Assembly (NCBI GenBank): GCA_910586385.1
Contig: CAJUGX010000004.1
Coordinates: 54,862 to 118,861, forward strand
Length of the DNA: 64,000 nucleotides
Reading direction: 5' to 3'
DNA from: an uncultured Christensenella sp.
Lineage (GTDB): Bacteria; Bacillota; Clostridia; Christensenellales; UBA1242
Position numbers and translations under genes: made by a program. This document shows positions 2,483 through 47,299 of the stretch, piece after piece (position 1 is the first letter of the stretch; each line of letters opens with the position of its first letter). The notes below the pieces were generated by a model that saw only the letters and a program-made list of their open reading frames with translations, did not search any database and was not told the DNA's origin.

Positions 2483-4120
2483 ATGAAATCAAAATTTAAG
2501 ATACTCTTATCATTTTTGTTTGTGGCTCTTTTTGTCACTGGAGTTGGAGTTTTGTCCGCATGCGGAGGAAAAAGCGAACCCGACATAACCGACGGGACTA
2601 AAGGCCTGTATTATTGGGAAAACGACGATGGTCAATCTTACAGAGTGGGAATGGGAGAAAAGGTCTCAACAAAAGACATTGTCATCCCAACAACTTACAA
2701 AGGCAAACCTGTCACAGAGATTGCTCCAGGAGCATTCGACGGCACTGACATTGTGAGCATCACTTTCACTGACAATGTGACAAAAATTGACTATTCTGCT
2801 TTCCAAAATTGCCAATCACTCACAAAAATAAATTGGGGAAAAAACATCTCCTCCATAGGAAGCAATGCTTTCGAAAATTGCAACGCTCTTCAAGAGGTTG
2901 AAGCCCCAGAAAGTGTTGTCGAATTTGGTTATTCGGTTTTCTCCGAATGCTCTTCTCTTACAAAAGTCATCATCCATGGCAATGCAACTTTGGATAACCA
3001 TGTTTTTTCTCAATGCAGTTCGCTGGAAACCGTCGAATTCCTTGGGGAAAACAGTTTGACTCTTGGTTCTAGTATATTCACACATAGTCCAAATCTCAAA
3101 CAAATGAGATTCACTGCTCAAAACGTGACTGCTGACGAATGGGCATTTATGGATTGCGAACCAACAACCCTCTCAGCAACAACAAACTTCCTCAACTCAG
3201 GTTTCATTGGGACAGACCAGTTGCAAATTTCAAAAAACAGCATCGAAAATCTTGAAATTTTTGATGGCGAAACACTTCCAGAAGGTTTTTCAACATTGTT
3301 CACCAAACTCAAAACATTGACATTGCCAAAGACTTTCAAAACCAGCACAAACAGAGCATTTGATTCTGCATATAGCCTCGAAAGAGTAAACTATCTTGGC
3401 ACACTTGCTGACTGGTGCAACATTGATTTTGATGGATATCGTTCGCATCCATTTTGCCGTTCTTCAAAAAACAAAGTGGAACTTTATATCGACGGAAATC
3501 TTGTTGAAGGAGATTTGACAATCACATCTGGCATCTCTGAAGTAAAACCATATGCATTTTATGGTTATGACAAGATCAACACCCTCACCTTGGCAGAAGG
3601 GGTCGAAACAGTTGGCTCTTATGCATTCAACAGTTGCGGACTTCTCAAAATAACTCTTCCAGAAAGTTTGACAAGCATCAATCAATATGCTTTCTACGGC
3701 AATCAAGGGCTTGTTTCAATAGTCAACCATTCTGCTCTTTCAGAACAAAGCATCCAAGACACAACTGACGGAAGCAACTATCTAGAAATCAAAACTGAAG
3801 ATGATGGTGGTTGCTTGCAAATGCTTAATGATTTGATGTTCTTCAAATTTGCTGATGGCTCGTATGCCCTTGCAAAATATCTTGGCACAGCGACTGAAAT
3901 CACCCTACCAGCAAGCATCGACAATGAAGATTATATAATTCTTGCAAATACCTTCTCTGGCGCTTCTCTTGAAAGCATCATCTTTGCTGAGCAGTCAAAT
4001 TGGTATGCTCAAGAAAACAACAATGAAGCAGTTGAAATGGATGTGACTGACCCAAACACAAATGCAACAAATCTGAAATCAACTCATGCAAACAAAAATT
4101 GGTACAGAATACTCCCATAA
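2483..4120 (+). CDS. surface lipoprotein with BspA-type leucine-rich repeats
   Basis: Signal peptide plus lipobox (GVLSAC). Repeated ...I.IP..V..IG..AF..C..L..I... units (e.g. VTEIAPGAFDGTDIVSITFTDNVTKIDYSAFQNCQSLTKINWGKNISSIGSNAFENCNALQEV) are typical of LRR_5/BspA repeats. Confidence 0.7.
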   Translation: MKSKFKILLSFLFVALFVTGVGVLSACGGKSEPDITDGTKGLYYWENDDGQSYRVGMGEKVSTKDIVIPTTYKGKPVTEIAPGAFDGTDIVSITFTDNVTKIDYSAFQNCQSLTKINWGKNISSIGSNAFENCNALQEVEAPESVVEFGYSVFSECSSLTKVIIHGNATLDNHVFSQCSSLETVEFLGENSLTLGSSIFTHSPNLKQMRFTAQNVTADEWAFMDCEPTTLSATTNFLNSGFIGTDQLQISKNSIENLEIFDGETLPEGFSTLFTKLKTLTLPKTFKTSTNRAFDSAYSLERVNYLGTLADWCNIDFDGYRSHPFCRSSKNKVELYIDGNLVEGDLTITSGISEVKPYAFYGYDKINTLTLAEGVETVGSYAFNSCGLLKITLPESLTSINQYAFYGNQGLVSIVNHSALSEQSIQDTTDGSNYLEIKTEDDGGCLQMLNDLMFFKFADGSYALAKYLGTATEITLPASIDNEDYIILANTFSGASLESIIFAEQSNWYAQENNNEAVEMDVTDPNTNATNLKSTHANKNWYRILP

Positions 4121-5534: not shown

Positions 5535-6539
5535 CTATTTTGAAATAGCTCCGCCTTCTTTCTTTGGAAGACCGCTTATTGGTTGCTTTTTGCTGGCAGT
5601 CTTTTTCATGGCATTTTTTTTCGCAATCTCTCTCAATTTCTTTCCGAGTTTAACACCCTTTTCAATAACCGCAGGTTTGATTCCAACCATAGCCTTGTGA
5701 TTGATAAGGGAACTTCCACTATGGTCAGTTATTGTTTGCCTTGAAAATTCATCCCTTACAAGGGCAACGTAATCATTAAATGTACAATGAACTTCCTCTC
5801 TTACCGTGGTGAGTTTCATGCACTGAAGAGTGTCAACTGCTGAAAGGTTTTCCCTGTCCCAATCCTTGGTGAGTATAAAATCGCCTCCTCCAAGTTTGCA
5901 AGCAGAAATCCCCGCCTTTGTTTTATCGTCATAAAGATAGATAAGTTGTGCAATCATACATGAACAAACCATTTCACTCTCTTTGTCAGTAAACTTTTCA
6001 AAATGATACTCTGGTTCTGGCACATAAATCCCAAATCCACCAGGCTCACTTGCCACACAACTTGCCTGCATGTGATAAGGAGTGATGTACGCCTCCTTAA
6101 AAAATGAATAAAAATAATCATTTTTCTCGTCGTTATAAGGGTGAATCACAGGATAATACGCGAGTGGTGCAACAACTACTGATTTTCTAATGCGAGCATA
6201 CTTTTTAAGAAGTTCGACCTCTTGTTTTACCTTTCCTCTTGGGACAGTAGGCTGAGAAACAAGCATCGTATACTTTTTCTCACCAAAACTCGCAACAAAA
6301 ACAAGTTCTGTGTCACCATAATTGATAAATTGAATATCTGCCTTCTCTCCAGTCCTCAAATATATCTCTTCAAACCATTCAGCAACTTGATTTTTTACAC
6401 TCTGCAAAACTTTGTACTCAATGTCTATTAGTTTTAGACCCTTTCTCAAAGGTTCATAATATACTGGACTGTTCACAATCTTGATAAAATCTTTTTCCGT
6501 TGTTGGAATGCCAAGTTTTTCTTTTCCGGTTTTTTCCAT
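5535..6539 (-). CDS. hypothetical protein with a Lys-rich C-terminal tail
   Basis: ORF 5535..6557. Start placed at ATG 6539 (AAAAGGGGTGG upstream). No confident family assignment. Confidence 0.5.
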   Translation of the reverse strand: MEKTGKEKLGIPTTEKDFIKIVNSPVYYEPLRKGLKLIDIEYKVLQSVKNQVAEWFEEIYLRTGEKADIQFINYGDTELVFVASFGEKKYTMLVSQPTVPRGKVKQEVELLKKYARIRKSVVVAPLAYYPVIHPYNDEKNDYFYSFFKEAYITPYHMQASCVASEPGGFGIYVPEPEYHFEKFTDKESEMVCSCMIAQLIYLYDDKTKAGISACKLGGGDFILTKDWDRENLSAVDTLQCMKLTTVREEVHCTFNDYVALVRDEFSRQTITDHSGSSLINHKAMVGIKPAVIEKGVKLGKKLREIAKKNAMKKTASKKQPISGLPKKEGGAISK

Positions 6540-6656
6540 AAAGCCACCCCTTTTCATAAATTATATTTAATAGTACTTTATATATACTCGTATAATAACC
6601 CAAAACACACCTTTTGTCAACCCCAAATTTTTGAAAAAACCTCAATATGCTTGACT

Positions 6657-6664
6657 CCCCCCCC
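6657..6664. repeat. C8 homopolymer tract directly abutting a TTGACT -35 element
   Basis: TTGACT(6651-6656)-CCCCCCCC-aatgtga-TATTCT(6672-6677). The tract makes up most of a 15-nt promoter spacer, 33 nt upstream of ATG 6697. Confidence 0.9.
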
Positions 6665-6696
6665 AATGTGATATTCTTTGAGCGGAGGAAAAGAAA

Positions 6697-7053
6697 ATGT
6701 ATAAACAACAAGACTTAAAAGAATGTGATATTGAATTATTAACTGAAATAACAGACACAAATCTAACCAATGAATATGTCAAACTTATTGAGAATGGGGA
6801 AAGAGAAAATCTTCCCGATAATATTGTATTCGAAACAATAGCATCCAAAAATAAACAAGTATGTTATAAATTTTATGAAGTAAGAAATGAGGAAGAAATA
6901 GAGCAAGACTTGAAAATGTCAAAAATCAAAAGTCTAAACTCAATATCTAAAAGCTTGGATGGTATACATAGAATAATGCATTTCTTTGAAATCTTGACTA
7001 TAGTGGGAATGCTTATTGGCATTTTAGCAATCTTTTTAGTATTCGCACGTTGA
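6697..7053 (+). CDS. hypothetical tail-anchored membrane protein
   Basis: 118 aa, GGAGGAA RBS, a single C-terminal TM (FFEILTIVGMLIGILAIFLVF), very AT-rich coding sequence. Confidence 0.45.
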   Translation: MYKQQDLKECDIELLTEITDTNLTNEYVKLIENGERENLPDNIVFETIASKNKQVCYKFYEVRNEEEIEQDLKMSKIKSLNSISKSLDGIHRIMHFFEILTIVGMLIGILAIFLVFAR

Positions 7054-7231
7054 AAAAGAAGACTGAAATCAGTCTTCTTTGTTATTATGATTATATAACT
7101 ATATTCTTTACCAGTCGCACAAAATCGCCAACAGAGTGCGATTTTCGTTTGGTGCGCAAGTGAAAAATTAAGTTTTAAGGCGACGCTTTTGCCACACTTG
7201 GCAAAACGAGCGAATAACGCAAATTTTTCAC

Positions 7232-8866
7232 CTATTCAAGCGAAATGAGGTAGTAGTAAACTGGTTGTCCACCATTTGCCACAGTCACTTCGCAATCTGG
7301 ATATTTTTCAGCAAGTTTTGATTGAAGTGCTTCAGCTTCATCTTCTCTGATATCTTCACCATAGAAGAGTGTGATATTCATCACTGTGTCGCTCATAAGT
7401 GCTTCAACAAGTTTCTCTGTTGTCTCGCTTACGAGGCTTCCTTTTGCCAAAATTGCCTTGTCATCAAGTCCGATGATTTCACCTTTTGCAAGGTCAAATC
7501 CATCAACGTGAGTATCTCTGACAGCGTATGTCACAGAGCCAGAACGCACGCTTCGGATTGCTTCAAGCATTGCATTTTGGTTTTCTTCAACACTTGCATC
7601 TGGGTTGAATGCGATTGATGCCGCAATCCCCTCTGGGACGCTCTTTGTTGGGATGACAATGAGGTTTTTGTTTGTCACATCATTGGCTTGTTCTGCTGCC
7701 AAAACGATGTTTTTGTTGTTTGGGAAGACAAAGATATTTCTTGCAGGCACTTTTTCAGCAGCAGTTGCAATATCTTCCGCACTTGGATTCATAGTTTGAC
7801 CGCCAACAATGATTTGGTCAACAGTGAGCTCTTTGAAGATTTCTCCAAGTCCGTCACCAGGAGCAACAGCAATCATTCCGATTTCTTTTGTCTCTTCAAC
7901 GGCTTGAGCCTTCTTTTTGAGTTCTCTGTTCTGCTCTCTCATGTTTTCGATCTTGAGATTGAAGAGTTCGCCAAGTTCCAAAGCATAGCCAAGTGCTTTG
8001 TTTGGCTCATTTGTGTGTACATGCACCTTGACAAGTGACAAATCACCGATGCAAATGACAGAATCACCGATTTCCATGAGTCTTTCACGGAGTTTGTCGA
8101 TGTCAGCCTCGGTTGTCTTCTTGTGCATATTGATAATCATGTACTCTGTGCAATAACCAAACTCGATTTCACCCAAATTGTTGATATCAGCAATGACATC
8201 ATCAACCGTTTGAGGCTTTGTTTCGTCTTCGAAAGAGTATTCAAGATCCTCTTCACCATTGATGTAACGAGAAAATCCTGTGAAAATCACCAAAATACCG
8301 CGACCACCAGAGTCAACAACGCCAGCTTTCTTCAAAACTGGAAGCATTTCAGGTGTTTGTTTGAGGATTTCTTCCCCTGTTTCACATACTTTTCTGAGGA
8401 AAGTCTCAAAATCATCGTGTTTCTTTGCAAGTGCAACGGCATTTTCAGCCATGACACGGATGACTGTCAAAATTGTCCCCTCTTTTGGCTTTGTAACAGC
8501 CTTGTATGCTATGGTTGCACCCTCTTGCATAGCCTTTGCAAAGTCTTTTGTTGTCACCTCTTTGCAGTTTTTGGTGACTGAGCAGAAGCCTTTGAAAATC
8601 TGTGAGGTGATTACCCCACTGTTTCCTCTCGCACCTCTGAGTGCACCTTTTGAAAATGCTTCTGACAAAGAAACAAGGTCATTGTTCATGCACTTGTTTA
8701 TTTCTCCAACAGCAGATCTCATAGTCAAAAACATATTTGTCCCAGTGTCTCCGTCTGGAACAGGAAAAACGTTCAATGAGTCAACATACTCTTTATTTTG
8801 TTCAAGAAGACTTACTCCAGCAAGGACCATCTTGCGGAAGGTTGTCCCGTTTATTGCTTTTTGCAT
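7232..8866 (-). CDS. yloV: DAK2 domain fusion protein YloV
   Basis: The N-terminus LNVFPVPDGDTGTNMFLTM is the DhaL/DAK2 motif. About 544 aa, and follows yloU as in Bacillus. Confidence 0.88.
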   Translation of the reverse strand: MQKAINGTTFRKMVLAGVSLLEQNKEYVDSLNVFPVPDGDTGTNMFLTMRSAVGEINKCMNNDLVSLSEAFSKGALRGARGNSGVITSQIFKGFCSVTKNCKEVTTKDFAKAMQEGATIAYKAVTKPKEGTILTVIRVMAENAVALAKKHDDFETFLRKVCETGEEILKQTPEMLPVLKKAGVVDSGGRGILVIFTGFSRYINGEEDLEYSFEDETKPQTVDDVIADINNLGEIEFGYCTEYMIINMHKKTTEADIDKLRERLMEIGDSVICIGDLSLVKVHVHTNEPNKALGYALELGELFNLKIENMREQNRELKKKAQAVEETKEIGMIAVAPGDGLGEIFKELTVDQIIVGGQTMNPSAEDIATAAEKVPARNIFVFPNNKNIVLAAEQANDVTNKNLIVIPTKSVPEGIAASIAFNPDASVEENQNAMLEAIRSVRSGSVTYAVRDTHVDGFDLAKGEIIGLDDKAILAKGSLVSETTEKLVEALMSDTVMNITLFYGEDIREDEAEALQSKLAEKYPDCEVTVANGGQPVYYYLISLE

Positions 8867-9802: not shown

Positions 9803-9875
9803 ATTTATTGTTATGACAAAAGAGAAAAACCTGTTACAATCTGCCGAGTAAAAAAATAAAACACCGATTCGGTGT

Positions 9876-11030
9876 TTATTTTTCTTGTTTTTGCCCCTTT
9901 CTACTCAGACAGCCGTTTACAATCACATACACAAATGCGATAAGCATAAACACTGAAAGAAAGACAATTTCCACAATATAAAATGGTTGTGCGTAAATTT
10001 TCTGACAGAAAATTATTGAAGCTGAAATTGCATATGCCACAGTTGTCGCTCCAATGCTTGACATGAAGACAATTGACAATTTCTCTCGATAATTTCTGAG
10101 CATGCCAAGGGATATTGTTGTAAGCATAAACATCATCATAAGTCTTGACACATCAAAAGCTTTCAAAGATTTGTCAAAATAAGAAATCTTGAAATACAAG
10201 AAGAGCGCAATGGCAACAGTCACAATTCTATACACAAGTGGAAGTTTGTTTGAGCCATGGATGCAATTGCAAGTCACAACAGCAACAATTGAACAAGCAA
10301 TTATTCCAAACACAAAAACCATGTTATACAAATTGATTGATGACCTATTGATTATGGTAGCAATGATTGTCGCCAAAATCATAAGCCAAGAAACAATATA
10401 GAAAGCGCAAATCGAAACATTTTTGAAAATCTGTTGATAGAAATTTACAAAAAGCATCGCACATGCAACGACTGTCATTGTATCATAAATATAAAACATT
10501 GAAATATTGATATTTTCAAGCTTGCAAAGCATGCAAACATAACAAGTAAGCGCAATGATTCCAATCAAAATGAAGTCTATATATTTTGCTTTTATTTTTT
10601 CAAAATTTGAAATGCAATAATAACATATAAACAAAATCATAGCCGAAACGATAATCAAGCCGGTGTTATTGTTGTGCAAAAAGTAAATCGCAAAGTCTGT
10701 AAAATATTTTATAAATGCCCAAAGAGCAACCCCACATGCAAGAATAAGAAACAAAAACGATAAGATTTGTTTTATCTGCGAATTTCTTTCAAAAACATCG
10801 CCATTTTTTTTGCTTCTCACAAAAGCATAAACAAACTTGTAAATTTCAAGAACTGCCCCCAAAAACAGAAGCAATGCGCTCACAAGCATGAAAGCTCTAC
10901 ATGAGTAAGTTGGTCTGAAAGAGGTGTTTTTGAAAAAGGTAATCAGAATGTTGTTGACAAAGAGACAAACTGTGGCAACAAAAGGCAAATAATTATACTT
11001 CTTTATCAAATTGTACAGTTTTTCAGCCAT
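9876..11030 (-). CDS. polytopic integral membrane protein (10 or more TM), function unknown
   Basis: 384 aa, almost entirely hydrophobic helices. Starts 1 nt after the stop of the upstream lipoprotein gene, so probably co-transcribed. Confidence 0.6.
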   Translation of the reverse strand: MAEKLYNLIKKYNYLPFVATVCLFVNNILITFFKNTSFRPTYSCRAFMLVSALLLFLGAVLEIYKFVYAFVRSKKNGDVFERNSQIKQILSFLFLILACGVALWAFIKYFTDFAIYFLHNNNTGLIIVSAMILFICYYCISNFEKIKAKYIDFILIGIIALTCYVCMLCKLENINISMFYIYDTMTVVACAMLFVNFYQQIFKNVSICAFYIVSWLMILATIIATIINRSSINLYNMVFVFGIIACSIVAVVTCNCIHGSNKLPLVYRIVTVAIALFLYFKISYFDKSLKAFDVSRLMMMFMLTTISLGMLRNYREKLSIVFMSSIGATTVAYAISASIIFCQKIYAQPFYIVEIVFLSVFMLIAFVYVIVNGCLSRKGQKQEK

Positions 11031-11031
11031 T

Positions 11032-12447
11032 TTAAGCCTCTGCTGTGATTGTGTGAGTTTTTACCAAGACTTCGCCATCTTGTCCAGGATAATAAACTTT
11101 AAGCTCGTCAGCAATTGCTCCGCTGTCAATAATTGTTGGAAGTGGAGCAGAAAGTGAAGAAAGTTCACCTGTGCCATTTATAAAGAACAATGTCATATCT
11201 TTTGGAGCATTCATATAGAGTGTTGAGTTGTAACCCCCAATCTTAATGTCATCCCCATAAGCCCAAATCAAAACTTCCATAGGAACTTGCCCTGGCAAAA
11301 CCTTAATATTGTGGTCATTGCAATATCTCACTCTGCGCTCATATGCACCTTCATATCCATCTGCCCATGCTGTACCTTTTTCATCGACACTAGTTGAAGG
11401 GTCATCAAGTCCCCATTTTGGATGTGGCTTAATCACAATGTTGTAATCTGGAAAATCTGCCATGATTTTGTTGAAGAATTTCTCAAAATCTTGTTCTTTA
11501 GTTCCGTTCTTGATATCTGCATCTACGCCTGAAAATTGCTCACTGGTCAAACTTGCTCCGCAAACAACAAGAGTTTTCTTTTGATTATCTTGTTTGATGA
11601 TTGGATCAATATAATCAACATCAAAAACCGCTTTCTTAAATTTTGTTTGATTCTCTGCTGAAAGAGCCCTATACATTTGTGTAAGACTTGACTTTTTGAA
11701 ATTAATATTGGCAAGCTTAAGTTTCATACTTTCACTTGAAGTTTCAAGAAGTTCTGGATATTGCATCATAACCTTGACATTATCTCTATATTCATAAGCA
11801 AAAGCATAAGAAAGTTTGTACCCTGAAGTGTATGTGGCTGCAGTAAAATCATAGTTTGGATTCGTCTTTGCCTGTTGAATCTCATTCCTTACATTTTGCA
11901 AATCATCTTCAAAAACCTCATTTCCATCTGTTCCGCCATAAATGCTCTTGAAATATGTGTAAGCAGCATTTCCATCTTCCACAAGATTGATTTTCCAATT
12001 TTCTTTTGGAATTTGATTTGTGATAAACATCTTGAATGCGAGTTTAACATTATAATCTGTGACATAAAGTGTAAATTTTGCTTTCTTATTTTTCAAATAA
12101 GTGTGAAGCACTTTGTTTGACATCTCTTCCAAAACAGTTGATGAAACACCAGAGGCATTAGGCTCATCCTTTCCCAAGAAATTGAAACCAAGTTGAGTTT
12201 CATCTGTGAATGTAAGTTTTCTGCTGTACCACATATCAGTGCTGTCCTTTGTGCCAAGAAGGTCAAGCGTAGACATAACGACTGGCACTGTCGCATTGGT
12301 GAGAACAAAGTTGTAATTTTTCTCTTCCCCCTTACCTTTTCCACAGCCAATCAAAGCAAATGGAAGTGTGAAAAGAACTGCTGTTGCAAGCGCACAAGAT
12401 TTGAAAAACAACTTGATTGCACTTGACTTTTTGTTTTGTGATTTCAT
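11032..12447 (-). CDS. lipoprotein with GT80 sialyltransferase-like motifs (putative sialyl- or trans-sialidase-type transferase)
   Basis: Lipobox LIGC. INLVEDGNAAY (cf. the PmST1 NLYDDGSMEY D/E-D/E-G motif), KTLVVCGAS, IKPHPKWG (HP motif), and PMEVLIWAYG..IGGYNSTLY, where Glu-to-Ser spacing is 17 residues as in PmST1 E338/S355. ATG 12447 follows GGAG (the ORF-track start at 12450 is TTG). Confidence 0.5.
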   Translation of the reverse strand: MKSQNKKSSAIKLFFKSCALATAVLFTLPFALIGCGKGKGEEKNYNFVLTNATVPVVMSTLDLLGTKDSTDMWYSRKLTFTDETQLGFNFLGKDEPNASGVSSTVLEEMSNKVLHTYLKNKKAKFTLYVTDYNVKLAFKMFITNQIPKENWKINLVEDGNAAYTYFKSIYGGTDGNEVFEDDLQNVRNEIQQAKTNPNYDFTAATYTSGYKLSYAFAYEYRDNVKVMMQYPELLETSSESMKLKLANINFKKSSLTQMYRALSAENQTKFKKAVFDVDYIDPIIKQDNQKKTLVVCGASLTSEQFSGVDADIKNGTKEQDFEKFFNKIMADFPDYNIVIKPHPKWGLDDPSTSVDEKGTAWADGYEGAYERRVRYCNDHNIKVLPGQVPMEVLIWAYGDDIKIGGYNSTLYMNAPKDMTLFFINGTGELSSLSAPLPTIIDSGAIADELKVYYPGQDGEVLVKTHTITAEA

Positions 12448-12489
12448 CAATTTTCTCCTTTTCTTTTTGTTAGTACAAGTTTAACACTT

Positions 12490-12498
12490 CCCCCCCCC
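12490..12498. repeat. C9 (G9 on the coding strand) homopolymer tract inside the promoter spacer of the 12447..9876 operon
   Basis: Minus strand reads TTGACA(12507-12502)-aac-GGGGGGGGG-aagtgt-TAAACT(12483-12478), an 18-nt spacer. Confidence 0.9.
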
Positions 12499-12601
12499 GT
12501 TTGTCAAATCATTTCCCCACTTTATTACATTCTTTACGCTTAAAAATCAAAATAGAAAAAGGATGCACAGACAGCATCCTTTTATATCTAGAAATGAGAT
12601 A

Positions 12602-15992: not shown

Positions 15993-16401
15993 AACGTTTT
16001 GAGAACTGAGAAGCCTTTCTTGCTTTCTTGAGACCGTATTTTTTTCTTTCTTTCATTCTTGGGTCTCTAGTAAGAAGACCAGCGTCCTTGAGTTCTTTTC
16101 TGTAAGTTTCAGAAACTTTGAGAAGAGCTCTTGCGATACCGTGGCAAATAGCACCTGCTTGTCCAGCAATTCCACCACCAACAACATTTACTGTGATGTC
16201 ATATTTGTCAGCAGTGTTTGTAAGAACCAATGCTCTCTTTGCGATGAGGATAAGAGTATCTCTTTGAAGGTATTCGTCAACGTTTTTGCCATTTACTGTG
16301 ATGACGCCAGTTCCAGTTGTCATACGAACTCTAGCGATAGATTTTTTTCTTCTTCCAGTTGCGTTGAAAGTTGCAACTTGTTTTTGTTTCTTTTCAGCCA
16401 T
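15991..16401 (-). CDS. rpsI: 30S ribosomal protein S9
   Basis: ...[19 protein letters not shown]...[25 protein letters not shown]. Confidence 0.97.
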
Positions 16402-16844
16402 TATTCCCTAACTCCTTCTAATGTGATCAATTCAGGTTTTTGTGCTTGGTGGTTGTGGTTTTCATCTTTGTAAACATGAAGACGAGTGATTTGCTTTCTA
16501 CCCAAAGAGCTCTTTGGAAGCATACCCTTGACAGCCTTTTCGATAACTTTGCAAGAGTTTGTTCTCATCAAAGTGTCATAACCCACTTCTTTGAGTCCAC
16601 CGATATAACCTGTATGCCAACGAAGTTTCTTTTGTTCGAGTTTCTTTCCTGTCAAAACAACTTTGTCAGAATTGATAACAACAACGAAATCTCCAGTGTC
16701 AACATGTGGTGTGTAGATTGTTTTATTCTTTCCAGTCAATATGTCAGCAACTTGGCTAGCAAGTCTTCCAAGAGGCATCTTGTTGGCATCAACAACATAC
16801 CATTTTCTTTCAACTGTGGCTGGATTTGCCATATAAGTTTTCAT
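16401..16844 (-). CDS. rplM: 50S ribosomal protein L13
   Basis: [20 protein letters not shown]...; its stop overlaps the rpsI start. Confidence 0.97.
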
Positions 16845-16955
16845 TTTTTCTCCCTCGATTTTTCATTTTTGTGATTATAATAAAATTTTATTTCGGACTT
16901 GTGAATTCTCGTGGGGCTAACACAAAAAAAACACTTCCAAAATATGGACTTTATA

Positions 16956-16984
16956 ATTCTATATAAATCCCATACATTTGTCAA
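16956..16984 (-). promoter_or_regulatory. rplM-rpsI promoter followed by a leader of about 105 nt (possible L13-type r-protein leader)
   Basis: Minus strand reads TTGACA (16984-16979), 17 nt spacer, TAGAAT (16961-16956). The long 5' UTR has not been compared to a covariance model. Confidence 0.45.
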
Positions 16985-17062
16985 GTGTTTTTCACAATTT
17001 ATTTGGAGTCGCGACTCTTTTTATTCCTAAATTCTATCCAATCAACCTGCAATATGTAAAAT

Positions 17063-17641
17063 CTATACCACATCTGGCCAGAGGTCTGTTGCAGAGAGTT
17101 CCAAAGAGCCAACCTTTTCGGCTGTGAGCATAAGTCTGTTGTATTTTATAACATCCTTGAAGAGTTTGCTCTTCTCATTTTTGCTACCTATTCCCTTGAG
17201 CAAATAGTCCTCGATTTTGTTTTCAACTTTGCCACAAAGTGAAGTGATTATGTATGCAAGTTGCAAGTGGTTGATATTTTTGCCAACGAGGTTTGCAAAC
17301 GCCTCATCCCTTGCAGAAATGTTTGCATTAAGCAAAGATACAAGTTCCTTCTCACTCTGCGTAGAAAGTGCAAGATGTTGAACTTTCAAGTGGCAATTTG
17401 AAAGGACTCTTTTCTTTGCCATTTCAAAGTCTCCCCCCTTTTCAACATCAGCCAAAACAGAAGCAAGTTCCACCTTGAAAAAGTCCGAAACAGGAAGTCC
17501 TTCTTCTTGCAAAATTGTTTGATTGTACTTGCTCAAAAGATACAAATAGTTTGAACGAGAAACGCCAAGCTCACATACGCCAGCACAAACATTGCCATTT
17601 GCATCAAATCCAACCATGTCAAACAAGTGTAAAAAGTTCAT
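17063..17641 (-). CDS. hypothetical protein
   Basis: ORF 17063..17800. The most plausible start is ATG 17641 (GGAAGAGGGAA upstream). No motif recognised. Confidence 0.45.
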   Translation of the reverse strand: MNFLHLFDMVGFDANGNVCAGVCELGVSRSNYLYLLSKYNQTILQEEGLPVSDFFKVELASVLADVEKGGDFEMAKKRVLSNCHLKVQHLALSTQSEKELVSLLNANISARDEAFANLVGKNINHLQLAYIITSLCGKVENKIEDYLLKGIGSKNEKSKLFKDVIKYNRLMLTAEKVGSLELSATDLWPDVV

Positions 17642-18643: not shown

Positions 18644-18652
18644 CCCCCCCCC
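18644..18652. repeat. C9 (G9 on the coding strand) homopolymer tract inside the promoter spacer of the 18602 lipoprotein gene
   Basis: Minus strand reads TTGACG(18657-18652)-GGGGGGGG-attttgTGa-TACGCT(18634-18629), a 17-nt spacer with an extended -10 TG. Confidence 0.9.
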
Positions 18653-47290: not shown

Positions 47291-47299
47291 CCCCCCCCC
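47291..47299. repeat. C9 (G9 on the coding strand) homopolymer tract in the spacer upstream of a consensus TATAAT
   Basis: Minus strand reads TTGATTtttttgc-GGGGGGGGG-aaaaaag-TATAAT(47283-47278), 39 nt upstream of ATG 47252. Confidence 0.9.

Follow-up and report, generated by a model that had tools for sequence, protein, structure and literature searches.

A GT80 sialyltransferase-like lipoprotein of uncultured Clostridia and its candidate phase-variable promoter

Chemoenzymatic synthesis of sialosides relies heavily on GT80 enzymes, whose natural roles are poorly understood. To our knowledge, the characterised members all come from Gammaproteobacteria; they include PmST1 (PM0188), the enzymes of Photobacterium damselae and Photobacterium phosphoreum, JT-ISH-224 and PdST of Pasteurella dagmatis. 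Here we describe a relative of these enzymes in a monoderm, spore-forming member of the Clostridia. It is encoded in a 64,000-nucleotide stretch of DNA from an uncultured Christensenella sp. (assembly GCA_910586385.1, contig CAJUGX010000004.1, positions 54,862 to 118,861), hereafter the window. The gene lies on the minus strand at 12447..11032 and encodes a 471-residue lipoprotein from its ATG (a TTG one codon upstream would give 472 residues). It is followed on the same strand by the gene of an orphan 384-residue membrane protein (11030..9876). The locus reveals a distant GT80 sister superfamily in Firmicutes that is invisible to annotation and displayed outside the cell, and it raises a sharp question about the donor available to a cytidine monophosphate (CMP)-type GT-B enzyme outside a Gram-positive cell. 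If our reading of the sequence is right, it would also suggest a mechanism, so far unstudied, by which Gram-positive bacteria vary their surface sugars.

An earlier note on this DNA had likened the lipoprotein to GT80 enzymes by eye, and we asked how this likeness fares in profile and structure searches. On its own the lipoprotein is a poor query. Its match to the Pfam family PF11477 (PM0188) scored 14.4 bits (E 0.018) over residues 377-419 only, below the gathering threshold of 25 bits, a phmmer search of the PDB with the single sequence returned no match, and NCBIfam gave nothing real. These weak results are what would be expected if the motif matches were coincidental and the lipoprotein were unrelated to GT80, which we consider exceedingly improbable in view of the searches with families of sequences. 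A word-indexed search recovered ten homologous clusters besides the lipoprotein's own, at 42-57% identity. When the profile of this close family was run against the PDB, PmST1 chains were the seven best matches, all weak (E ~0.3), and the alignment to PmST1 was collinear through LLEDG/LYDDG, KPHP/KGHP, PMEV/SFEV and GGYSST/GGVASS. A superfamily profile, built from 80 of the clusters that we found and headed by the window lipoprotein, matched the P. damselae enzyme (4r83) with an E-value of 8.9e-24 over chain residues 105-500, and also JT-ISH-224 (2z4t, 4e-22), PmST1 (~1e-17) and the P. phosphoreum enzyme (2e-10); it had no significant match in the PDB other than GT80 structures. Finally, hhalign aligned the close-family profile with the P. 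damselae sialyltransferase at E 1e-4; the alignment has 235 columns and reaches from EDG to SS. For this comparison residues 105-500 of the P. damselae protein were rebuilt from the HMMER target lines, and the row lengths agreed with the reported coordinates. Homology to characterised GT80 enzymes is thus significant over both Rossmann domains, by the superfamily profile and by hhalign. Individually, PF11477 was matched by 16 of the 80 relatives (best 1.5e-10).

The predicted structure points the same way. An AlphaFold2 model of the lipoprotein, with a predicted local distance difference test (pLDDT) score of 82.8 and a predicted template modelling (pTM) score of 0.81, was compared with the PDB using Foldseek. 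Ranks 1-23 were all GT80 sialyltransferases, with E-values from 8e-14 to 5e-9, in the order P. phosphoreum (2zwi, 8e-14), P. damselae (4r83), JT-ISH-224 (2z4t), P. dagmatis (4v2u) and PmST1. The GT80 alignments covered ~430 columns, with a target-normalised TM-score of up to 0.66 and 13-17% identity. The model therefore predicts a GT-B fold whose nearest structural neighbours are GT80. Coincidental motif matching is refuted by the profile (E 8.9e-24), by the Foldseek search with its GT80-only top 23, by hhalign (E 1e-4) and by the conservation across the superfamily of four motifs that are also collinear. The earlier note would have given up its reading had no significant GT80 or GT-B match emerged from profile or structure searches, and both kinds of search produced one. 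Its four motif pairings were each reproduced by HMMER and by hhalign and are therefore not chance. Profile and predicted structure together make the lipoprotein a remote homologue of the GT80 sialyltransferases. Its sub-threshold Pfam score and its low identity (13-17%) to solved members lead us to assign it to a GT80-like sister clade and not to GT80 proper.

We compared the lipoprotein with other sialyltransferase families. The GT38 polysialyltransferases (PF07388), such as SiaD of Neisseria meningitidis serogroup B (NmB) and the Mannheimia polysialyltransferase (5wc6), have the HP and D/E-D/E-G motifs in common with it (PMC4202792). However, they are cytoplasmic-face enzymes, and their structural match is far weaker than that of GT80: GT38 (5wc6) was the next class in the Foldseek ranking, with an E-value of 5e-6 and TM-scores of 0.32-0.37, and was followed by generic GT-B enzymes. 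PF07388 was matched weakly by 20 of the 80 relatives, the window protein had no PF07388 match, and the profile compared with SiaD gave an E-value of 0.086; GT38 is not a better match than GT80. GT52 structures were absent from the top 50 Foldseek matches of the lipoprotein model. Compared with GT80 itself, the fold and the collinear motifs are common to both, whereas the motifs differ in detail (VEDGN, IKPHP and ST in the lipoprotein; YDDGS, FKGHP and SS in GT80). The lipoprotein further differs in a C-terminal beta-hairpin extension (model residues 448-466) and in its obligate partner gene, described below.

We next mapped the residues that serve catalysis and CMP binding in GT80. Asp141, His311, Glu338 and Ser355/356 have been reported to be important for catalysis by PM0188 (PMC4202792), the conserved GT80 motifs have been named YDDGS, FKGHP and SS (PMC7540698), and the GT80 Glu binds the ribose of CMP through a bidentate hydrogen bond (PMC7540698). 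In the lipoprotein, E157-D158-G159 (11971..11979, minus strand) forms the D/E-D/E-G motif, and D158 aligns with the catalytic base Asp141. The equivalent of FKGHP is K340-P341-H342-P343 (11419..11430, minus), in which H342 aligns with His311; E391 (11275..11277, minus) aligns with Glu338; and S408-T409 (11221..11226, minus), equivalent to the SS motif, aligns with Ser355/Ser356, which bind phosphate in GT80. The PmST1 numbers were obtained from chain indices 117, 287, 314 and 331/332 by adding 24 for residues missing from the crystallised construct. In both proteins 17 residues separate the Glu from the Ser (E391-S408 and E338-S355). All of the GT80 motifs, including the Glu and SS pair with this spacing, are therefore found in the lipoprotein by sequence alignment. 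The motif coordinates given in the earlier note (11971-11979 and 11419-11424) and the 17-residue spacing were exact, and the Asp, His, Glu and Ser that it had aligned coincide at the sequence level with the published PmST1 catalytic residues.

In the close-family alignment, EDG, K340-P-H342-P343, E391 and S408 are invariant, and the second position of the SS motif is Thr in the lipoprotein's clade. We extended this comparison to ~150 diverged representatives of the superfamily. D158 is conserved in 145 of 160 sequences and G159 in 159 of 160; K340 in 128 of 131; H342 and P343 in 129 of 130 each; E391 in 134 of 147, with a further 10 carrying Asp; G404 in 137 of 146; G405 in all 146; S408 in 128 of 146; and a Ser or Thr at position 409 in 145 of 146. 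With the catalytic positions 88-99% conserved across the representatives, the nucleotide-binding and catalytic apparatus is under selection throughout the superfamily, which argues for retained catalysis. We considered whether catalysis could nevertheless have been lost, such that the lipoprotein would be a two-lobed nucleotide- or glycan-binding protein serving its membrane partner as a receptor or transporter. The cleft between two Rossmann lobes of a GT-B fold resembles that of periplasmic binding proteins, the order of lipoprotein gene and then permease gene would fit, and no superfamily member has a demonstrated activity. However, the catalytic Asp and His are 91-99% conserved among the diverged representatives, among which fusions to cell-wall anchors with no adjacent permease are numerous. 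We therefore regard a purely binding role as very unlikely.

The N-terminus of the lipoprotein has the features of a bacterial lipoprotein signal. It reads MKSQNKKSSAIKLFFKSCALATAVLFTLPFALIG-C35, with a K-rich, charged n-region, a hydrophobic h-region and the lipobox L-I-G-C35, which conforms to the pattern [LVI][ASTVI][GAS]C. The signal peptide and lipobox span residues 1-35 (12343..12447, minus strand), Cys35 is the lipidation site and the model is disordered to residue 38. The lipobox LIGC had already been noticed from the sequence; its Cys35, together with G36, proved to be invariant in 11 of 11 close homologues, which also have lipobox-compatible residues. A native Photobacterium GT80 enzyme also has a lipophilic N-terminal signal (PMC7540698), so a secreted or lipid-anchored location is not in itself unusual for GT80.

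The wider superfamily is large. An exhaustive profile search found at least 412 representative clusters, defined at 50% identity, at E <= 1e-3, and 248 at E <= 1e-10. A lipobox-like N-terminus is present in about half of 165 superfamily sequences, and multidomain relatives carry SLH, Flg_new (Listeria-Bacteroides), cadherin-like, BACON, Ig-like, PT linker or type I dockerin modules. These architectures are all extracytoplasmic and of Gram-positive type. Among the ten largest multidomain relatives, we found anchoring or binding modules only and no second catalytic domain. One of the 80 relatives had a weak match to NF052328 ('neuraminidase TDE0471', E 7.4e-5), which raised the possibility of a sialidase fusion; we rejected it, since an Asp-box motif occurs in none of the 165 sequences and the match is therefore probably not a GH33 domain. 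The close family is restricted to metagenome-assembled genomes of uncultured Clostridia/Firmicutes, among them a contig from human gut. Paenibacillus proteins are the only members with public names, and these names are 'S-layer homology domain-containing protein' and 'hypothetical protein'; cultured carriers include Paenibacillus haidiansis (WP_331848357.1) and Paenibacillus sp. E194 (WP_044356537.1). The core domain is not covered by any NCBIfam model, and we found no functional name for superfamily members in public sources. The earlier note had held that a GT80-like surface enzyme would be unusual in a Firmicute. This stands for the literature and for annotation, but not for the sequence databases, with their hundreds of clusters and Gram-positive anchors. 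In the open-access literature, neither GT80-like lipoproteins nor SLH-linked sialyltransferase-like proteins turned up for Firmicutes, which is weak evidence of absence. Against that literature, four aspects are apparently new in that we did not find them there: the membrane partner, the spore-forming Clostridia host, the poly-G switch and the size of the unannotated extracellular superfamily.

Some members of the superfamily depart from a single-domain layout. One protein of 1017 residues (P0026) has two tandem GT80-like domains (residues 78-507 and 523-917), and another of 1311 residues (P0083) has GT80-like domains at 341-611 and 865-1138 plus three Flg_new repeats. At locus L036, lipoprotein open reading frames (ORFs) of 490 and 409 residues are adjacent, and the second, of 409 residues, matches the GT80-like query.

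We turned our attention to the membrane protein encoded downstream. It has 12 predicted transmembrane (TM) helices and very short loops, in keeping with the earlier note, which had counted at least 10 helices and recognised no family. The lipoprotein stop and the start of the membrane protein gene are separated by 1 nt (...GCT TAA A ATG GCT...), and with so small a gap the second gene is probably translationally coupled to the first. The positions and lengths of both ORFs and the gap between them, as first read from the sequence, all held on the minus strand. As in the window, a polytopic ORF of 374-386 residues lies 1-31 nt 3' of the lipoprotein coding region in 13 of 13 distinct close-relative loci whose contigs reach past the lipoprotein stop (L007-L016 and L030-L032), and the genes that flank the pair differ from genome to genome. 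Farther out, one outgroup (L020, 30% identity) has a collinear 377-residue partner (hmmsearch E 2e-11), a second (L019) has only a 169-residue hydrophobic ORF beside the lipoprotein relative, and three distant relatives (L033, L035 and L037, 25-29% identity) have no partner gene adjacent. Since it is missing beside these distant relatives, the partner belongs to the close clade and not to the whole superfamily.

The partners evolve fast: they are 21-38% identical among the aligned set, compared with 42-57% for the lipoproteins. We detected no relatives of the partner in Pfam, NCBIfam, PADLOC or a PDB profile search, and word-indexed homology searches returned only the protein itself and one orthologue. 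Weak, scattered Pfam matches among six partners were to 7TMR-DISM_7TM (three of six, best 2.9e-4) and Acyl_transf_3 (one of six), and Foldseek with a partner model of pLDDT 51.5 gave a best E-value of 0.59. By profile and structure, the partner was not placed among DMT or nucleotide-sugar transporters, MFS, MOP flippases, Wzy/EpsG polymerases or Acyl_transf_3. In 12 orthologues, Lys and Arg residues number 14.3 in the loops predicted inside and 5.0 in the alternate loops predicted outside, and this positive-inside bias predicts an N-in/C-in topology. Partner positions that are at least 85% conserved (R45, Y109, Y116, N121, D/N233, L289 and Y351) fall within or beside the loops predicted to face outward, most notably the one between TM3 and TM4. 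On the predicted topology, this conserved face fits a role at the outer face of the membrane, where the lipoprotein sits.

Homopolymer tracts in promoter spacers underlie phase variation of porA (poly-G) and opc (poly-C) in Neisseria meningitidis. Pilus loci of Bifidobacterium breve reportedly switch ON and OFF by replication slippage, and phase variation in gut Clostridia is said to have been traced so far mainly to DNA inversion, as in C. difficile. The GT80-like operon resembles the porA/opc type. Its promoter reads TTGACA-AAC-G9-AAGTGT-TAAACT on the minus strand, with a -35 hexamer TTGACA at 12502..12507, a G9 tract at 12490..12498 and a -10 hexamer TAAACT, preceded by TG-n, at 12478..12483; a G9 tract makes the spacer 18 nt long and a G8 tract 17 nt. 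The ribosome-binding site AAGGAG (12455..12460, minus) lies 7 nt ahead of the ATG. Intrinsic terminators bracket the two genes: the upstream one (12557..12583, minus), which belongs to a thioredoxin-reductase-like gene and has a 10-bp stem and a T tail, blocks read-through into the operon, and the other (9859..9877, minus) closes the two-gene unit. Because of these terminators on both sides, the lipoprotein and membrane protein genes are an autonomous bicistronic operon with its own promoter and terminator.

The tract keeps its spacer position across species while the flanks diverge. TTGAC(A/G) is kept in L007, L009, L010 and L012-L015, and a homopolymer of at least seven between -35 and -10 is found in L007 and L009 (G9), L012 (G8) and L013 and L015 (G7), as it is in the window. 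The tract is interrupted in L010 (G4TG4) and L014 (G3TG4) and missing from L008, L011 and the outgroups. It is also polymorphic within species, at the level of assemblies rather than of read-level counts: among six sequences of the window's own species with identical flanks, two have G8 (L001 and L003) and four G9 (L002, L004, L005 and the window), and a second species (57% protein identity) has G9 in six assemblies, G8 in one and one contig that ends in the tract. Judged from the sequences, the poly-G tract has the signature of a slipped-strand contingency locus and is a candidate phase-variation switch, in which slippage would set the spacing between -35 and -10 at 17, 18 or 19 nt and thereby switch expression stochastically. 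As with porA and opc, the tract is at least seven long, lies between -35 and -10, would alter the spacer by single-base slippage and is polymorphic between strains; unlike them, it belongs to an operon of uncultured gut Clostridia, with several more poly-G tracts in the same genome. The suggestion in the earlier note that the G9 promoter is phase-variable is thus borne out by the conserved position and polymorphic length of the tract. In the second species, the contig of L029 starts inside the operon G tract (position 1), as if the assembly had broken there.

What would such an enzyme do outside the cell? We know of no nucleotide-sugar pool outside a Gram-positive cell. No NeuA, NeuB, NeuC, Nan or sialidase domains occur in the window (~nt 1,032-64,000, by precomputed Pfam), which agrees with the absence of neuABC stated in the earlier note. 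In five other genomes, no neuABC, nan or sialidase genes lie within 8-10 kb of the pair. Sialyl transfer by GT80 enzymes is reversible, and transient CMP-N-acetylneuraminic acid (CMP-Neu5Ac) is the intermediate of their trans-sialidase activity and of much of their sialidase activity, the reverse transfer using catalytic, possibly tightly bound CMP (PMC7540698). With no known external nucleotide-sugar pool and no neu genes nearby, a trans-sialidase mode would be the most likely chemistry: a sialoside and bound CMP would give transient CMP-sialic acid, from which the sugar would pass to a new acceptor on the cell's own surface glycan.

We therefore tentatively favour, at a little under an even chance, a reading in which the lipoprotein would be a phase-variable, surface glycan-modifying enzyme working in a CMP-dependent transfer mode, while the partner would handle a membrane-linked acceptor or the nucleotide. 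The lipid-anchored GT-B enzyme, which appears to keep the Asp base, the K-x-H-P acid/phosphate site, the ribose-binding Glu and the Ser-Ser/Thr pair, would transfer sialic acid, or another nonulosonic acid related to it, in a CMP-linked reaction on the cell surface, and we infer from its sequence a sialyltransferase or trans-sialidase activity. At the membrane surface the partner would cooperate with the enzyme, either offering it a lipid-linked acceptor or providing the nucleotide or regenerating it. Catalytic activity, sugar, donor, the role of the partner and the ON/OFF effect on transcription are all parts of the reading that we infer. Candidates for the sugar are Neu5Ac, legionaminic acid, pseudaminic acid and Kdo.

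The concept has analogues. The surface-exposed sialyltransferase Lst (GT52) of Neisseria is said to use host CMP-Neu5Ac, as reportedly described by Shell et al. in 2002, and both Lst and the trans-sialidase of Trypanosoma cruzi serve self-decoration with scavenged host sialic acid by microbes that do not make it themselves. Scavenging is hypothetical here, and the T. cruzi enzyme is a GH33 beta-propeller, a fold unrelated to that of the lipoprotein. If trans-sialylation from host glycans were true, gut commensals would have a new route to sialylated surfaces and immune mimicry, glycoengineering would gain a new source of enzymes and an orphan 12-TM family would acquire a function. In its most far-reaching form, the idea would be that the unannotated Gram-positive GT80-like superfamily uses bound CMP as a cofactor to move host or environmental nonulosonic acids onto the bacterial surface, and that the Clostridia enzyme, with its 12-TM machine for acceptor or nucleotide and under poly-G switching, provides phase-variable host-sugar mimicry without sialic-acid biosynthesis genes. 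We think it decidedly unlikely that all of this holds together.

Two other readings assign the partner a transport role. In one, the lipoprotein would be a true Leloir transferase acting on a CMP-nonulosonate made in the cytoplasm (with Neu5Ac, legionaminic acid, pseudaminic acid or Kdo as donor sugar), and the 12-TM protein would export the nucleotide sugar or exchange it for CMP, analogous to the Golgi CMP-sialic acid transporter and luminal sialyltransferase. The full conservation of the CMP-binding residues, the strict coupling of the genes (gaps of 1-31 nt) and the polytopic, transporter-like size and short loops of the partner would be accounted for. However, we detected no similarity of the partner to DMT nucleotide-sugar transporters or any other transporter family, the surroundings of the operon in six genomes contain no genes for CMP-sugar synthesis, and distant extracellular relatives do without a partner. 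We know of no bacterial CMP-sugar exporter and consider this arrangement fairly unlikely. In the other, a hydrolytic, sialidase-like side activity would free the sugar as a nutrient and the 12-TM protein would be its permease. Sialidase and CMP-Neu5Ac hydrolase activities are documented for GT80 (PMC4202792, PMC7540698), a surface lipoprotein beside a 12-TM protein is the usual Gram-positive uptake layout, one relative has a dockerin, typical of extracellular degradative enzymes, and a human gut metagenome is the source of at least one close relative. Nutrient harvesting is nonetheless distinctly unlikely, in our estimate: nan catabolic genes are adjacent in none of the genomes examined, the partner matches no permease family and has R45 as its only conserved intramembrane charge, and conservation of the Asp that activates the acceptor speaks for transfer and against hydrolysis alone.

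Several observations weigh against the favoured reading of CMP-dependent transfer at the cell surface, in addition to the single-sequence searches and the assembly-level nature of the tract lengths given above. The position of PmST1 Arg313, which follows HP, is not conserved here, being K or S, so the sugar pocket may differ. The missing sialic acid genes in the window and in the five other genomes mean that nothing in the genomic context examined points to sialic acid specifically. Because distant relatives lack the partner, the enzyme does not generally need a TM protein. Finally, the AlphaFold model of the partner, built from a 3-sequence alignment, is poor in spite of its 12 long helices, and owing to its pLDDT of 51.5 the topology is read from the positive-inside rule only.

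The operon tract has company in the window. G/C runs of at least nine number three, against 0.07 expected in 64 kb, and runs of at least eight number five, all reading G on the minus strand, which suggests a set of contingency loci. At least two other tracts share the TTGAC-poly-G layout, upstream of small secreted or membrane proteins, and the other window tracts vary in length independently between samples. These conserved and length-variable poly-G promoters point to slipped-strand contingency loci in uncultured gut Clostridia. The tract at 18644-18652 (C9 on the plus, G9 on the minus strand) reads TTGAC-G9-ATTTTGTGATACGCT, followed by AAGGAG and the ATG of a 250-residue signal-peptide protein without a Pfam domain (MKKFGKIFGVAALAVATLTAGAV...); the window, L001 and L003 share G9 here, and L002 has G7. 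At 6657-6664 (C8, plus strand), TTGACT stands directly before C8 and is followed by AATGTGATATTC, GGAGG and the ATG of a 118-residue ORF (6697..7053); the window and L004 have G8 at this tract, L002 and L005 have G9, and L001 has a different gene at this spot, encoding a 155-residue zinc-ribbon protein. L002 (GCA_949949015.1, contig CATLHI010000003.1) thus differs at both the 6657 and the 18644 tract, while its proteins are identical to those of the window; the two are therefore separate assemblies or strains of one species. The G9 at 47291-47299 (C9, plus strand) comes shortly before AAAAAAG-TATAAT and the gene of a 124-residue membrane protein. A C8 at 2403-2410 lies ~9 nt upstream of the promoter TTGCAA-17-TATAAC of a 545-residue LRR_5 surface protein (2483..4120, plus strand) and is G8 in four of four assemblies compared. 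In the second species, a further G9 at 5524 of L007 follows the S15 gene (rpsO), upstream of the PNPase gene (pnp).

The window is core chromosome of a spore-former, with SpoIVA, SpoIIGA, SpoIIR, SipL, a SleB-like hydrolase with YpeB and the dcw cluster; two sigma-factor genes adjoin SpoIIGA and are probably sigE and sigG. In L008 (contig with P0010), BclA-type exosporium glycoprotein genes (Collagen + BclA_C, 16025-17410) and Spo0A lie less than 8 kb from the operon, confirming that this relative, too, is a spore-former. In L009, two adjacent genes of the TMEM164 family (PF14808) lie divergently upstream of the operon (5798-7772), and in L007 a TMEM164-ABC fusion lies 6 kb downstream of it.

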